Part shown: positions 10,349 to 16,273 of the stretch, one piece after another | How the letters are laid out: every line of letters begins with the position of its first letter | Numbering within the stretch: position 1 is the first letter of the stretch | Source: an uncultured virus (IMG/VR IMGVR_UViG_3300033994_000436) | Lineage: Duplodnaviria > Heunggongvirae > Uroviricota > Caudoviricetes | Strand: one strand, 5' to 3' | DNA: 64,000 bases | IMG/VR virus record: IMGVR_UViG_3300033994_000436 | Notes under the pieces: model-generated | Told to the model about the DNA's origin: nothing | The model's input: only the letters and a program-made list of their open reading frames with translations | Database searches by the model: none | Position numbers and translations under genes: made by a program

Positions 10349-10855
10349 TTACTTTACGAATTTAAAAAGGCACTTTGGACAAATGCACGTTTCTTTGTCT
10401 TTTGGGTCTGCTTTTAACTCATTATCGACTGGTTCTTCGGCAGAACCGATCAATTCTGATAGCTGTTCGTTGCTGAAGGCCAATAGCGACACATCGAACT
10501 TGTAGTCATTTAGCTCGTCGATTTCGACAGAAAGCATATCGAAATTCCAATCAGAGTTAAGCGCGATGCTGTTGTCGGCAATGACATACGCCTTGCGTTG
10601 CGTATCCGACAGGTGAGCAAGCCGGATGCATGGAACATTATCCCACCCAAGTTTCTTTGCCGCCAGCACACGACCATGTCCGGCAATGATGTCGTAGGTA
10701 TCGGAAATCAGAACGGGGTTGGTAAATCCAAATTCTTTTATGCTCGCCGCGATTTGGCTAACTTGAATGTCGCTGTGCGTGCGGCTGTTCCTTGCGTAGG
10801 GGATGAGCTTGTTGATGTCGATTTGCTCAATGCGGTGAGATATTTTGCTTTCCAT
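10349..10855 (-). CDS. ParB/Srx N-terminal domain protein
   Basis: LIPYARNSRTH, IKEFGFTNP, IIAGHGR, AYVIADN; C-terminal CPKC. Confidence 0.9.
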   Translation of the reverse strand: MESKISHRIEQIDINKLIPYARNSRTHSDIQVSQIAASIKEFGFTNPVLISDTYDIIAGHGRVLAAKKLGWDNVPCIRLAHLSDTQRKAYVIADNSIALNSDWNFDMLSVEIDELNDYKFDVSLLAFSNEQLSELIGSAEEPVDNELKADPKDKETCICPKCLFKFVK

Positions 10856-11053: not shown

Positions 11054-11081
11054 TTGACGGCCATTGGGTTTTTGGTATGGT
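11054..11081 (+). promoter_or_regulatory. Sigma70-type promoter driving a structured RNA
   Basis: TTGACG-16 nt-TATGGT with extended -10 TG and an upstream A-tract. Confidence 0.65.
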
Positions 11082-11087
11082 CACCTC

Positions 11088-11252
11088 GTTCTGAATGTGG
11101 ACGCATTGGAACGCGATTTTACCTCGCAGGCAGATTTCGATCTCCTGCTGAAAGACCCGCCCTGTGGTGCAACACTCGGCGGGTCTTCTCATTCTTGGGC
11201 AGGCACGCAGGAACCACAGGCGAGTGTGAATGCGTACCACAGCGGCCTGTAG
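11088..11252 (+). ncRNA. Multi-hairpin RNA with complementary loops (C4/CI antisense-like)
   Basis: Hairpins at 11088-11112, 11126-11148 (UUCG loop), 11152-11187 and 11216-11250; hairpin 1 (11096-11107) and the hairpin 3 loop are complementary to 11221-11242. Confidence 0.6.
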
Positions 11253-11317
11253 AACTGGCTTTGTCGAACCAAAACGACTTACCCAGCAAAGAAGAGAAGA
11301 AACACTCTGCCTTCATC

Positions 11318-11937
11318 TTAAAGTCACAATCTGTGATTTCAATTGGAGGGTAGAAGTTTCTTTTCCTTACTCTTTCCTTTCCTCAGTACCTATTGGGGGG
11401 ATCAGGGGGGTGTTTCCTTTCTCCTTCGGTTTTCTTTGCACAGGTTATTCAAGAAAAACGACTCTGGCTTTAATAAGGCCATCGGCTATTAAAGAAAAAC
11501 GCAACAACTCGCCAAACGTGTCGATAAAACGCGGTTTTCTATACACGCTTCGCCAGATATGTCGATTTCACCCTAATTTTTGTACATATGAATCAGGTTA
11601 TACCCGAAAGGGAGCGTTTTTTCTGACAAAACCACATTTGTCGAATGCCAATAATTAACAATTCCATTACAAACCATCTGCACTTGTCCATATCTGTCTA
11701 GGAATTGTAAACAAAAACTGAACGATACACACGGAAAGTGTAGTGTGCAATGTCAGTTATAGCCAGCGATCTGCAACTCAATTTTTAAACCCATCGAATT
11801 CGAGGGGTTTAGATCCATGCCTTGAGATTCCCCCATGAGGGGAATTTATGCGCACAGGATAAACCATGATAAGATCCCTAAACTTGCTAAGATCCCTAAA
11901 CTTGCTACAACCTTATTGTTGACGCCAACAAAAAGGT
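11318..11937. repeat. Array of diverse palindromic (operator-like) sites
   Basis: About 10 distinct imperfect inverted repeats, most of them in 11468-11937, with no credible ORF. Confidence 0.7.
11870..11905. repeat. Perfect 18-bp tandem direct repeat
   Basis: TAAGATCCCTAAACTTGC x2. Confidence 0.95.
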
Positions 11938-11972
11938 CGGGGGAGGATCAGTAATTTCTTGACTGTTTAAAT

Positions 11973-12500
11973 GTGTTATATAAAATATTTGTATTGAACA
12001 ATCAAATTACACTTAAAAGAGGCGACAGGCATCCAGATAAAAATTTATTGTTCTGGTGTTATGGTGGGGCCAATAAAACAAAACCAAGATGGGTTTCTGT
12101 TAATGATTTCAATGATAAAAAAGAAAAAGATCGAATAAAATCTATTAAGTGGAGGAAGCACAATAAAGAAAAACATAGGATGCTTTCTAGGGAGTGGCAA
12201 ATAAGAAATCCCAATAAAGCAAGTGATAAAAGCAAGCGATGGAGATTAAAAAATAGACATCGCGCTAATGAGCATTTAGCAAGAAGGAGAGAAAGAATTT
12301 ACAAGCACTCAACAAATATAGATCAAGACTCAAAAGAAATTATCTGTGTCCTTTACGAGCAATCTAGGAGATTGTCGTTCTGCACAAAAATTAAATTTCA
12401 TGTGGATCATATTATACCATTGGTTCACGGAGGAAAGCACTCTCCAGAAAACCTACAAGTGATTACGGCATTTATGAATGCAAGGAAGTGGGCAAAATAA
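11973..12500 (+). CDS. HNH homing endonuclease
   Basis: FHVDHIIPLVHGGKHSPENLQVITAFMN motif; AT-rich; opposite strand; exact start uncertain. Confidence 0.85.
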   Translation: MLYKIFVLNNQITLKRGDRHPDKNLLFWCYGGANKTKPRWVSVNDFNDKKEKDRIKSIKWRKHNKEKHRMLSREWQIRNPNKASDKSKRWRLKNRHRANEHLARRRERIYKHSTNIDQDSKEIICVLYEQSRRLSFCTKIKFHVDHIIPLVHGGKHSPENLQVITAFMNARKWAK

Positions 12501-12590
12501 AATCGGGGAAAGATCAGGTCGCTAGATTAAAGACCAGTTACCCATTGGGTCACGCCCGATCAAGACCCCCCCTCATTGCCTCCCCCGATT
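12501..12590 (-). ncRNA. Closed-stem structured RNA at the end of the tRNA operon
   Basis: Termini AATCGGGG/CCCCGATT pair; internal GATC/GATC, ACCC/GGGT and GGTC/GACC stems. Confidence 0.45.
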
Positions 12591-12658: not shown

Positions 12659-12734
12659 TGGAAGCAGAGGTTGGAATTGAACCAACTATCTCGCACGTTA
12701 TGAGCGTGGTGACTTGCCGTTTGTCCTCTCTGCT
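12659..12734 (-). tRNA. tRNA with CAT anticodon (Met or Ile2), atypical
   Basis: Acceptor AGCAGAG/CTCTGCT, loop CTCATAA, T-arm GTTGG-TTCAATT-CCAAC, encoded CCA. Confidence 0.85.
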
Positions 12735-12909
12735 TTGAAATTTTTCTGGCTACTCTTTTCGAGCAGAATTCGTGCGCCAGAGGCACTAGTGGTTAGGCCA
12801 CCCCGACCATCCAACCTCCTCTTTCGAGAAAGCCCGTGGGCTTTTGTCAATCAGATGGAACCTTTGAATTGAGTTATCGAGTATTCCTCGGTAACTGGCA
12901 AGCAAAAAT

Positions 12910-12985
12910 TGGCACAGCCCCTTGGAATCGAACCAAGCCAGCAAGATTTGGAGTCTCGCTCGCCTACCTTGGAACATTGGACTGC
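12910..12985 (-). tRNA. tRNA-Trp(CCA), atypical
   Basis: Acceptor GCAGTCC/GGGCTGT, loop CTCCAAA, T-arm CTTGG-TTCGATT-CCAAG, encoded CCA. Confidence 0.8.
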
Positions 12986-12992
12986 GTTACAA

Positions 12993-13020
12993 ATCCTATG
13001 CACTTGTTAAGATTAGTCAA
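12993..13020 (-). promoter_or_regulatory. Promoter of the tRNA-Trp/Met transcript
   Basis: TTGACT-16 nt-TAGGAT ending 7 nt before the tRNA-Trp 5' end. Confidence 0.65.
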
Positions 13021-13087
13021 GGTTTTCAGTGTTACCAGATAACTTGCAAGTACTAATTATCTACTAAAACGTTTACAATTAGTAGTT

Positions 13088-13160
13088 CTGCCGCGCTAGG
13101 ACTTGAACCTAGAAAAGTCTGCTTCAAAGGCAGATGAGTCTACCATTCCTCCACACGGCA
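13088..13160 (-). tRNA. tRNA-Gln(TTG)
   Basis: Acceptor TGCCGTG/CGCGGCA, TCTGC-CTTTGAA-GCAGA anticodon arm, CTAGG-TTCAAGT-CCTAG T-arm; CCA not encoded. Confidence 0.9.
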
Positions 13161-13168
13161 ATAAAAAA

Positions 13169-13297
13169 CTATTTCATCCTCTTATACACTTCAGATGCTT
13201 TATCCATACAAGTAGGGCAATTATGAGGCTTGCAGGCAGTTTGGCAAGCCGGACAACGATACTCGCGGCCTTGCGGTAATTTTGTTTTTTTATCCAT
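13169..13297 (-). CDS. Small zinc-finger protein (42 aa; below ORF-track cut-off)
   Basis: MDKKTKLPQGREYRCPACQTACKPHNCPTCMDKASEVYKRMK, two CxxC. Confidence 0.5.
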   Translation of the reverse strand: MDKKTKLPQGREYRCPACQTACKPHNCPTCMDKASEVYKRMK

Positions 13298-13366
13298 TAT
13301 AGCAAATTTACATATTAAAGACGATTCTATTATCCTTTAATAAGGCTTTTTCTTATTAAAGGTTGT

Positions 13367-16273
13367 CTAATCGCTCATGTCAACAAACTCCATTGCGTCA
13401 ACAATAGATTGAAGCCTGCTTCGCGGCTCTCTTTCAGGCTTTTGATCTGTCATCGTGGCAACTGCCCCTCCACGCAAGCGCATCAGGTACACAAGCATGG
13501 ACAGGGAATCCAGAGCATCTGGCGACTTGCTCCTTGTCCGCTTGCAGTAGTCTCCCTTGCTCTCAACACGAACTAGCCCCTGTCCGGCCTGCTTGTACCT
13601 GCGAGAAGTTGCCTGCCTGATCAGGTCTTCGTTTCTAAAGCTGGGGCTGATCTTCAGATATTCAAATTCCAGATACTTCGACAACCCAAATAGCAATTCT
13701 GTCACAACGCCGTTGTACAACTCGTTTGCCTTCTGGCTGTCGTCCCCAAGGATGTGATGCTCGCTCGCCGCCCATGAATAATTTACTCCCATAACTTGTT
13801 CTCCAAAAAGAGTACAAAGGCTGTCGTGAATGCCTGCGCCATTTCCAGTCCTGTCAACCACCAGCCAGTTGGGGCCAATCTTCATCTGCTTGGCAAACTT
13901 GATAATAGCCTGCGTCTGTTCCAACGTAGGTTTCTTGGGGAACGGAATCTGGCTATCAAGCTGAAGAACAACTCGCGGCTTCTTAAAGCTAATGAACTGA
14001 CCACTTTGCGGTGTCCACCCGTCACAAAGCCCAAAACGGCCATAGGAACACATTACTTGGTCATTACCCTCCAACGCCAAATCAAACGCCGCCAGCGGCA
14101 CTACAGGCCCGATAAAACGAACGATACCAATGCTGTTGTCCATCATGGCGGGAGTTATGATGCCCATTGCCATTCCTTCCTCTGGGAACCACCCGCGAGC
14201 CATCGTCATGGACTCCGCCGTCCTGCCCCTGCTCATGTACGACATGAATCCCTGATAGGTCTGCAATCCTCCGTAAACAATCCTGCGTTCGATCACGTTC
14301 TCGCACTTCGCGGCATCTAGACGGAGTACATGGTATCCCTCCTTGCTTTCCCATTCGTGATCATCCTCGCAGTCAACAGATGCCCATCCATTCACAGGCT
14401 CGCAACGCTGACCGAATGCACTTGTCCTGTCCTTCGGGTTGGACGCACCAAAAATCTTAATGTGTCCGGCGTATTTCTCAGTGTCACTAGTAGACAAGAT
14501 GTTGTTGATACCCTCCCAGACTCCAGACGGGATCTCTTCGGCTTCGTCCAGCACAACATGGGTGCGCGATAGCCTGCCCCATAGCTTATGCTCTGCCCCA
14601 AATCTTGGAGTTGGGTGATACCCGCGAAGCGTTCCATGTCCACTCTCTCCCTTGGGAATCGCAACAAGCTGGATTCCGTTCTTGTTGTCGGAAGTCACCT
14701 GAATGCTTGTCGCCTTGTCTTCCTGATCTGTTACAGGACGAACCAATGCTGTTCGATGGAATGTCTTAATATTCGCAAAGATGTTTCTCTCGGCGTGTTC
14801 CTTGGTAAGCGAAATAACCTTGATACAGGTGTATTCAGGATCTCTCCACCAATCCAAGTAAAACCATGCGCCTGCACTGAAGCTGTTGTGCGTTATCGTG
14901 AAATCTCCAAGTAGGAATCTGTGATCCCCATCCAAAGAGAATCCGTAATACTTTTGAACGCCTGCTTTTGAGATTGTGATCTTTCTTCCAATACAGACCC
15001 GCTGTCTCCTTTCTCTAATCGGCTTTAGTCTGCATGGGATGATGGTGCAATCGCCGCTGATGTGTCCTCTGTAATATGTTCCCCATACTCCATTGTTAAC
15101 GCATTCTTTCTTGCACTCTGTGATTGTTGCAGTCAGCCCAAGACTCCTAGCAATAAACACAATACCATTAGCAACATCTTTGTTCTTTTGGATAAATCCG
15201 TATCCAACATCTGCAATGTATCCATCTGTATCTAGGAAACCAGCCAACACATTGCGCCGGACATCATCAGAGTTGATTTTATAAATATCAGGAACAATCT
15301 TTTCTCGTCCTTTCATGGCAAAGCCAAAAACATCATGTGTCTTTCCAAGTCCACGAACCACATAGGTTGCAGCCTTGTTGTCCTTTTTCTCGTTTTTATA
15401 GATCCTTCCACCACGCGATTCCCAATAAGAATTCCATGCGGTCACGTTGGATTCGTCCATTGATGTAAATGTAGGAGCAACACATTTTGATCCTCCATCG
15501 CCAAGCCACAGACCAAAAACGTATGGGTCAACAGGAACCTCTTGTTCGTCAAATGCAACGCCTGTATATGCGCCCTTGTAGAACTCTTTGAACTGATCTG
15601 ATTTCTCAATGTATTCCTTGATCGGAATATCAATCATTTTTCCTCTGGTATAGGTTGAAGAAGTAGTTTTTCCATCGCCGTTCTTTTTGTTTTGCGTGCA
15701 TACAAGAGTCAGAATGTGATTCTCATTGACCGTGTACGACTCTCCACGCTCTTGATCAACGCGATACATTTCAGACTCTCCAGAATGAGTCTCAAGAACA
15801 TGACGAGGCTTGCTGTCCGGCCCCATGACTAGATCGCCAATGATTACATTCTCTACAGACTTGATTGTTCCATCTGCCATCAATACAGGCGTTCCTTCTG
15901 CTAGGCACTTGCCCATAGCTCCGGCTCCCTGCACCAGCACCTGATCATGTTCAAACAAGCAACGCCATGTGTCCCTCCCACTCTTTGGCCTCCAGTCGTA
16001 CACTTCCGCACCCCAAAGAATCGTAGCCGCCGCCTCAAAGTGATTGTGATCCAATAGATGTTGCACATATCGCCGGACAACATCCTCGGCAGTCTTTATA
16101 TCAATCTCCTCAACCTGTACGGGGTTGGCTATCGTCTTCATCAGAATATATTGTGCGGCATAAAGAATGCCCATCTCCTCATCGCGGTCTGCCTCCTTGC
16201 GGATGTTCGTCGCGTGCTGGTGATAATACTTCCTGCTGTGCGGAGGCGTAATTGTATATCCTGTGTCGTTCAT
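13367..16273 (-). CDS. terL: Terminase large subunit, intein-containing
   Basis: Walker A GAGAMGK|S, Walker B VVLDEAE, motif III ASNP, nuclease AAFDLA, VDRTGNGAG, KSPDALD. Confidence 0.9.
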   Translation of the reverse strand: MNDTGYTITPPHSRKYYHQHATNIRKEADRDEEMGILYAAQYILMKTIANPVQVEEIDIKTAEDVVRRYVQHLLDHNHFEAAATILWGAEVYDWRPKSGRDTWRCLFEHDQVLVQGAGAMGKCLAEGTPVLMADGTIKSVENVIIGDLVMGPDSKPRHVLETHSGESEMYRVDQERGESYTVNENHILTLVCTQNKKNGDGKTTSSTYTRGKMIDIPIKEYIEKSDQFKEFYKGAYTGVAFDEQEVPVDPYVFGLWLGDGGSKCVAPTFTSMDESNVTAWNSYWESRGGRIYKNEKKDNKAATYVVRGLGKTHDVFGFAMKGREKIVPDIYKINSDDVRRNVLAGFLDTDGYIADVGYGFIQKNKDVANGIVFIARSLGLTATITECKKECVNNGVWGTYYRGHISGDCTIIPCRLKPIRERRQRVCIGRKITISKAGVQKYYGFSLDGDHRFLLGDFTITHNSFSAGAWFYLDWWRDPEYTCIKVISLTKEHAERNIFANIKTFHRTALVRPVTDQEDKATSIQVTSDNKNGIQLVAIPKGESGHGTLRGYHPTPRFGAEHKLWGRLSRTHVVLDEAEEIPSGVWEGINNILSTSDTEKYAGHIKIFGASNPKDRTSAFGQRCEPVNGWASVDCEDDHEWESKEGYHVLRLDAAKCENVIERRIVYGGLQTYQGFMSYMSRGRTAESMTMARGWFPEEGMAMGIITPAMMDNSIGIVRFIGPVVPLAAFDLALEGNDQVMCSYGRFGLCDGWTPQSGQFISFKKPRVVLQLDSQIPFPKKPTLEQTQAIIKFAKQMKIGPNWLVVDRTGNGAGIHDSLCTLFGEQVMGVNYSWAASEHHILGDDSQKANELYNGVVTELLFGLSKYLEFEYLKISPSFRNEDLIRQATSRRYKQAGQGLVRVESKGDYCKRTRSKSPDALDSLSMLVYLMRLRGGAVATMTDQKPEREPRSRLQSIVDAMEFVDMSD
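14885..15907 (-). mobile_element. Intein (341 aa) with LAGLIDADG homing endonuclease
   Basis: Starts CLAEGTPVLMADG, has NENHIL block B, GLWLGDG and LAGFLDTDG blocks, and ends THN followed by Ser. Confidence 0.95.

Follow-up and report, generated by a model that had tools for sequence, protein, structure and literature searches.

Copies of palindromes that in bacteria lie inside ORF6N, KilA-N, dinD and rhuM genes, together with copies of the operator found upstream of SoFic genes, occur without those genes at non-coding positions of this phage DNA, and these stolen cognate sites probably neutralise host defence proteins (a reading of the sequence to which we give a probability of about 0.6). 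The identity of the sites, the absence of their genes, their DNA-level symmetry and their modular exchange among related phages are established. The window, meaning here the whole 64-kb stretch of phage DNA that was analysed, holds the palindrome stretch between a ParB-N gene and an HNH endonuclease gene; downstream of the latter come three tRNA genes and then a 968-aa intein-bearing gene, which its position and motifs mark as probably a terminase. Among the public sequencing runs that hold DNA of the window the best are lake metagenomes, and no RNA runs are among the listed holders. A search of 301 Verrucomicrobiota genomes (a phylum chosen as a sampling guess) did not turn up the putative portal protein of the phage, and the Atlas rows of the host search were viral; the cognate genes discussed here come from sampled bacterial genomes, plasmids and metagenomes. 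The genes and sites on which the argument turns are as follows (n/a, strand not applicable).

10349–10855, minus strand: ParB-N gene, left neighbour of the palindrome stretch
11318–11342, strand n/a: ORF6N-gene palindrome (PDC-S05 family), occupying the terminator-hairpin slot
11427–11494, strand n/a: SoFic-type operator pair with 41-bp spacing; perfect 8-11-8 site at 11468–11494
11484–11510, strand n/a: possible, uncertain right half of a RhuM-type site (compared through its form in related locus L087)
11519–11586, strand n/a: TGTCGA-class pair of 8-11-8 sites with 41-bp spacing, degenerate here, probably SoFic-type
11784–11813, strand n/a: KilA-N-gene palindrome (PDC-S22 family)
11910–11951, strand n/a: dinD-gene palindrome (PDC-S13 family; palindrome 11910–11937) with about 14 bases of dinD-like flank
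11973–12500, plus strand: HNH endonuclease gene, inside the dinD-like flank, with a 22-base repeat at both ends
12870–12898, strand n/a: rhuM-gene palindrome (PDC-S05 family), newly found, in a tRNA-gene spacer
13294–13361, strand n/a: SoFic-type operator pair with 41-bp spacing; perfect site at 13335–13361, newly found
13367–16273: 968-aa gene with intein (Hint and LAGLIDADG domains; Pfam matched the intein only)

Every inverted repeat that the original prediction had placed in 11318–11937 is present there, and the peptides LKSQSVISIGG, IVDANKKV and FKPIEFEGFR (the last at 11784–11813) read as it had given them. Its expectation that palindromes would be denser than in shuffled sequence held for strong repeats and failed for weak ones: across 11300–11972, set against 200 dinucleotide shuffles, there are 14 repeats scoring at least 5 (shuffled mean 11.1; 51 out of 200 shuffles as high, hence no enrichment), 7 scoring at least 6 (mean 3.1; 4 out of 200), 5 scoring at least 7 (mean 0.94; 0 out of 200) and 4 scoring at least 8 (mean 0.30; 0 out of 200). 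The tRNA stretch near 12701–13470 holds more strong repeats than 11300–11972. The array does occupy the range first proposed, but that range was too narrow, since the cluster, broken by the HNH and tRNA genes, reaches 12898 and 13361, and the RhuM site and another SoFic pair lie outside it. Six of the nine elements first listed trace to four families, whereas those at 11625–11642, 11726–11742 and 11827–11845 have none. The links to ORF6N, KilA-N and DinD drawn in the original prediction hold under testing, and RhuM and SoFic are added as two further source families; DUF1016 (PDC-S02) has no site in the window, its best match there scoring 9.2 bits, outside the region, against a natural minimum of 21.1. 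The window likewise lacks any cognate gene, as had been claimed: in tblastn with 95 family proteins the best match, at E 0.011, was none other than the KilA site, and a Fic protein query found no match in the window at E ≤ 1. ORF6N and KilA-N domains are also absent from all five related virus records, two of which are complete. Derivation of the region from a single decayed gene was ruled out because the pieces derive from at least five families, and the ORFs predicted over it were taken as spurious because relatives have one-base gaps there.

The symmetry of these sites was characterised in bacterial genes fetched without use of the window. Among 201 sampled Verrucomicrobiota genomes, 88 have rhuM, 66 DUF1016, 30 dinD-like and 23 KilA-N genes, from which the best 30 rhuM, 20 dinD, 30 DUF1016 and 22 KilA-N loci were taken for models. 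A palindrome at a fixed codon position is the strongest of its gene in 28 out of 30 rhuM, 18 out of 20 dinD, 21 out of 21 aligned KilA-N and 21 out of 30 DUF1016 genes, with a mean of 10–12 of 13 positions paired at the fixed column versus 3.3 elsewhere. For ORF6N, the degenerate pattern of 11318–11342 falls in frame within ORF6N domains at 61 out of 80 places among the bacterial matches listed, the other 19 being copies without an ORF6N domain, and the arms covary: a flank position that the pattern leaves unconstrained is paired in 0.91 of 79 sites, versus 0.50 expected. Arm mismatches on the sense strand show no preference for G-U (45, versus 38 for A-C), symmetry extends to central bases that a hairpin could not pair, and the site stands in either orientation in ORF6N genes (46 versus 14 of the 61 among the matches listed, one having it both ways); these features point to symmetry of double-stranded DNA rather than of RNA. 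That the palindromes function instead as RNA hairpins, either as decoy RNAs or as mRNA structure, would suit the one slot that lies within a probable transcript and folds well, but the same three features speak against it and make it very improbable.

Each of the KilA-N, DinD, RhuM and ORF6N models finds one outstanding site in the 64 kb. The KilA-N site scores 40.3 bits at 11785 (next best 1.6), compared with a leave-one-out median of 36.8 for natural sites; the DinD site 30.1 bits at 11910 (next best 5.7; natural minimum 21.0); and the RhuM site 22.7 bits at 12870 (next best 3.4; natural minimum 14.1). The ORF6N model, which is circular because its training set came from the window site, gives 25.8 bits at 11316. 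Short-word blastn of the palindromes, the check that had been envisaged at the outset, placed plasmid matches inside the source genes for KilA-N (25 records with 11776–11815 as query, 9 of them within annotated KilA-N genes) but not for the others: the DinD site matched 8 plasmid records, none annotated dinD, the ORF6N site 68 Rhizobium plasmid records, all 60 among the matches listed being intergenic, and the RhuM site gave 8 chance-like plasmid matches. A decayed gene-like flank, starting at about 11758, adjoins the KilA-N site, and the HNH gene is bounded within the dinD-like flank by the 22-base repeat at 11930–11951 and 12496–12517, the related locus L003 having the uninterrupted form without the HNH insertion. 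The gene-like flanks that remain at these two sites, KilA-N and DinD, suggest that both were taken from host genes. At the place matching 12870–12898, two relatives (L101 and L104) have other RhuM-site variants. The L087 form of 11484–11510 is identical to a bacterial RhuM-type site at 22 out of 24 bases.

The SoFic-type elements copy a sequence that lies upstream of the gene rather than within it. A four-half-site scan of the window ranked 13294–13361 (29/32) and 11427–11494 (26/32) as its top two places; the latter element is also present in L101 and is deleted in L001. A metagenome scan with the 11468–11494 element yielded 25 loci (48 ORFs from 16 of them were scanned), and the element stands just upstream of a SoFic gene in at least four of these and upstream of HTH_3 genes in two. 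Among the upstream regions of 29 other SoFic genes, many contain 8-11-8 inverted repeats whose arms vary together, and 18 of the 29 have an 8-mer repeated at a distance of 41 bp, the next commonest distance having 5; this 41-bp repeat (loci L625–L654) is likely an autoregulatory operator array. Judged by length alone, the 11-base spacer does not stand out in SoFic promoters (18 out of 29, versus 19 for spacers of 14 and 16). The pair at 11519–11586, whose two same-spacing TGTCGAT sites, at 11519 and 11560, are 41 bp apart, is probably SoFic-type as well. Its assignment is weaker: five other places in the window equal its score of 25/32, and in a search of 271 genomes the TGTCGA tandem pattern matched a single genome at two places, one some 120 bp upstream of a SoFic gene and the other behind that gene, a number of matches that the reversed control equalled. 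Six viral loci, one of which is a relative, have the same pattern; the Fic query matched none of them, and six ORFs scanned from four of the other five include no Fic gene.

All source families are defence genes or candidates in PADLOC. All 16 representatives match PADLOC candidates (RhuM and ORF6N, PDC-S05; DinD, PDC-S13; DUF1016, PDC-S02; KilA-N, PDC-S22), and the Fic genes behind the operator elements match SoFic; PDC-S13 and PDC-S22 have candidate status only, and the source KilA-N proteins match PDC-S22 alone, with no NCBIfam match. Restriction-modification (RM) or RM-like genes flank 14 out of 21 KilA-N and 7 out of 17 dinD loci, counts that stand without a background control (78 neighbour ORFs scanned of the 118 in 38 loci). 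According to Han et al. (10.1101/2024.09.26.614923), over-expression of a RhuM-domain PDC-S05 gene lowered plating of T7 and T5 about 1000-fold, and the PDC-S02 gene tested is not among the protective candidates named there. SoFic is counted among defence systems by Millman et al. (10.1101/2022.05.11.491447), and the main text of Payne et al. (10.1101/2024.01.29.577857) contains none of the family names. Structure models of DinD (pLDDT 88.5) and KilA-N (pLDDT 76.0) loosely resemble the dimeric DNA binder DdrC (DinD, E 4e-5, TM 0.37; KilA-N, E 8e-3), and structure searches with both gave no hint of a catalytic domain. Sequence search found no solved structures for the source proteins, and the KilA-N and DinD profiles do not align with each other.

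Left of the array, and partly interleaved with it, lies a conserved non-coding scaffold composed of the following elements.

11054–11081, plus strand: sigma-70-like promoter (consensus match only), start of the scaffold
11089–11187, plus strand: hairpins, a structured-RNA candidate, in which the first loop pairs with the third in relatives
11304–11365, plus strand: terminator-like hairpin with T-rich tail, whose loop is an exchangeable slot
11395–11410, plus strand: G6-ATCA-G6 tract after a pyrimidine tract, within 11357–11440

The whole scaffold (promoter-like site, hairpins, terminator-like hairpin and G tract) is present in 49 viral loci. The -35-like and -10-like words are retained in relatives, and the hairpins at 11089–11187 fold at a z-score of -5.2. 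In L001–L007 two complementary hairpin loops change together, as kissing loops or a pseudoknot would; the first loop in the window mismatches its partner at four positions, and the loops of L001 match. The 11089–11187 segment is a candidate replication-control or immunity RNA. Rfam covariance models matched nothing over 11054–11972, and elsewhere they found the tRNAs and two sub-threshold matches. The pyrimidine tract with G6-ATCA-G6 (11357–11440) is conserved in the 49 loci. It looks like the R-loop-forming G tracts known from primer RNAs and is for that reason a candidate origin or primer-RNA element.

Comparison with related phages, proposed as a check at the outset, shows entire sites gained, lost or exchanged for one another. 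In 31 of the 49 loci the loop of the terminator-like hairpin is empty; in 6 it contains an ORF6N site, and in the other 12 a KilA-N site, of which there are nine different sequences. A scaffold tree that leaves out the slot, made from 38 of 50 rows once 4 had been dropped as too short and 8 as duplicates, requires 8 or more changes of slot state, where the minimum is 2 and shuffling gives a mean of 12. For the empty state, 4 changes are required by branches with good support; recombination may contribute to these changes. At 20 bits or more there are 29 sites in 20 of the 49 loci, only 3 of them within ORFs of 120 aa or more, with two or more families in 5 loci; the other 29 loci, some on short contigs, have no site at that score. 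In relatives the DinD sites adjoin the same dinD-like flank, and the RhuM sites lie near tRNAs, while in both cases the two arms switch class together. At the same positions, loose contig ends from lakes hint that additional DinD and RhuM variants exist. Most of the 57 loci found through the neighbouring gene have neither scaffold nor sites within 6 kb of that anchor gene.

This arrangement could also mean that the sites are regulatory inputs, through which bound host proteins alter read-through or replication and the phage senses the defence content of its host. Such a role would fit the 18 of the 49 loci whose site occupies one and the same hairpin loop in a promoter-driven scaffold, and the fact that DinD sites always adjoin the same element. 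Nevertheless, the families are interchangeable in the slot and the slot is empty in 31 loci, further sites stand in tRNA spacers or behind stop codons, and the slot is explained as a tolerant spot, favoured because a palindromic insert lengthens the stem without breaking the fold. We regard regulatory input as unlikely.

Gene-less sites extend beyond this lineage. Viral loci matching the KilA-N pattern lie inside KilA-N genes in 36 out of 80 cases and outside them in 44, of which 36 belong to 32 clusters unlinked to the window; for DinD, among the matches listed, 5 out of 80 belong to dinD genes, and the remaining 75 are gene-less, in 38 clusters with no link to the window. Of the gene-less loci, 29 out of 44 for KilA-N and, among the matches listed, 50 out of 75 for DinD lie clear of ORFs of 120 aa. 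In 15 out of 119 gene-less loci (4 of this lineage) another family also has a site close by, in five of them within 35 bp. Two viral pattern scans gave no match, and provirus edges that include host DNA may account for some of the gene-less viral loci. Titration of regulators of co-resident prophages or plasmids, such as antirepressor-like KilA-N, Bro-N and ORF6N proteins, directed against competitors rather than defence, would accord with the 36 viral KilA-N matches inside KilA-N genes and with plasmids that have a KilA-N gene plus further sites; the matching subfamilies, however, are RM-embedded PDC-S types and SoFic, and DinD viral matches are seldom in genes, so that this possibility ranks somewhat lower than sensing. 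The Pontibacter plasmid L112 has one KilA-N gene and six matching places, which may be about three sites because a palindrome can match both strands. KilA-N-like sites outside annotated KilA-N genes were also observed in the Lactobacillus phages phig1e, LF1 and LR1 (in LR1 between recombinase and integrase) and in the Staphylococcus phages SP197 and DW2.

The sites might instead be neutral debris: host DNA able to form hairpins, picked up through microhomology where non-coding DNA tends to break, and decaying afterwards. Gene-like flanks do persist at the KilA-N and DinD sites, many relatives have no sites and some sites are degenerate. Neutral capture hardly accounts, however, for the restriction to palindromes of defence-type genes, for arms that change class jointly at inherited positions, for the sharply bounded gene-less sites and tandem variant sets in unrelated phages, or for the absence of any 20-bit match from 2.39 Mb of shuffles, and it appears improbable. 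The tandem sets, made up of different DinD or KilA-N variants, are on six unrelated viral contigs (L441, L492, L512, L462, L413 and L405).

Neutralisation of host defence proteins, the reading preferred here, would proceed as follows. The phage lineage would capture short pieces of host defence loci, namely (i) the palindromes within ORF6N, KilA-N, dinD and rhuM genes and (ii) the SoFic upstream operator, and would keep them gene-less at non-coding spots (the terminator loop, hairpin flanks and tRNA spacers) surrounding the conserved scaffold, which is possibly the phage origin. Each palindrome would be the docking place of a dimeric DNA-binding defence protein on its own locus, and these proteins would bind the phage copies as well. 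Replicating phage DNA would multiply the copies, which would soak up the defence protein; alternatively, sites near the origin might mark the phage DNA as self and spare it from attack. Titrating an autorepressor would, however, raise expression of the defence protein, unless host transcription is already shut down. A wider reading, on which we are evenly divided, holds that many single-gene defence proteins (RhuM, ORF6N, KilA-N, DinD, DUF1016 and SoFic) are restrained by a palindrome of their own locus acting as antitoxin or self-mark, and that varied phages carry swappable arrays of sites matched to host variants.

In RNA anti-CRISPRs and the pseudo-ToxI of phage phiTE, a phage keeps a stolen non-coding piece of a defence locus to neutralise the defence. 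Those pieces are RNA and act against one system, whereas the sites described here are apparently double-stranded DNA for several unrelated proteins. Acb2-type sponges, as presented in a review (PMC13434031), likewise counter defence by sequestration, but they are proteins that bind signal nucleotides, whereas here DNA would bind putative defence proteins. The closest likeness is to BstA and its aba element: in Owen et al. (10.1101/2020.07.13.199331, PMC8585504), aba is a 63-bp element with terminal direct repeats at the start of bstA that gives self-immunity to the phage owning the gene and, either in cis or when present in multicopy, also protects a foreign phage. As described there, aba is a short DNA element that overlaps a KilA-N-like defence gene and cancels that protein with cognate specificity; it acts as DNA, which the signatures of the phage sites also favour. 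In contrast, the phage sites are 25–29-bp palindromes of five other families, gene-less and several per genome. The CCCGCC terminal direct repeats about 57 bp apart that characterise aba have 0 matches in the window, and the other feature of aba, a defence-gene locus of its own around the element, has no counterpart in the window or, for ORF6N and KilA-N, in the five related records. The array is nevertheless rather likely a multi-family, palindromic, attacker-borne counterpart of the action of aba on BstA. In relation to PADLOC, PDC-S05, PDC-S13, PDC-S22 and SoFic are the source genes of the sites, and the phage has only the DNA sites. The literature covered, mostly outside subscription journals and in part as partial text, contained nothing on intragenic palindromes or gene-less phage copies, and a multi-family gene-less array is apparently undescribed. 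If the reading is true, it defines a class of gene-less phage counter-defence that is invisible to protein-based anti-defence searches; the function of very common, unexplained defence-island genes (rhuM, DUF1016, dinD-like and KilA-N) becomes concretely and cheaply testable; and gene-less phage palindromes point back to naturally important defence genes, as here with SoFic.

Four further elements lie within the array.

11625–11642, strand n/a: short inverted repeat GACAAA-n6-TTTGTC, probably a deletion-junction product
11726–11750, strand n/a: mobile palindromic motif, shared with 4 related loci, 3 of which have it shifted or inverted
11827–11845, strand n/a: inverted repeat, in 2 related loci, with poorer symmetry there
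11862–11908, plus strand: tandem 18-bp repeats, possibly iteron-like

The three repeats without a family and the 18-bp tandem recur in relatives and found no match among the bacterial loci compared; Bro-N and PDC-S23 loci allowed no further window element to be assigned. Bro-N genes of the sampled genomes (L568–L581) contain an internal palindrome of another class, with no copy in the window. A TATACCCGA-type motif without an assigned family, at 11598–11612 in the window, is present in 18 of the 49 relatives and forms a long inverted pair in L001.
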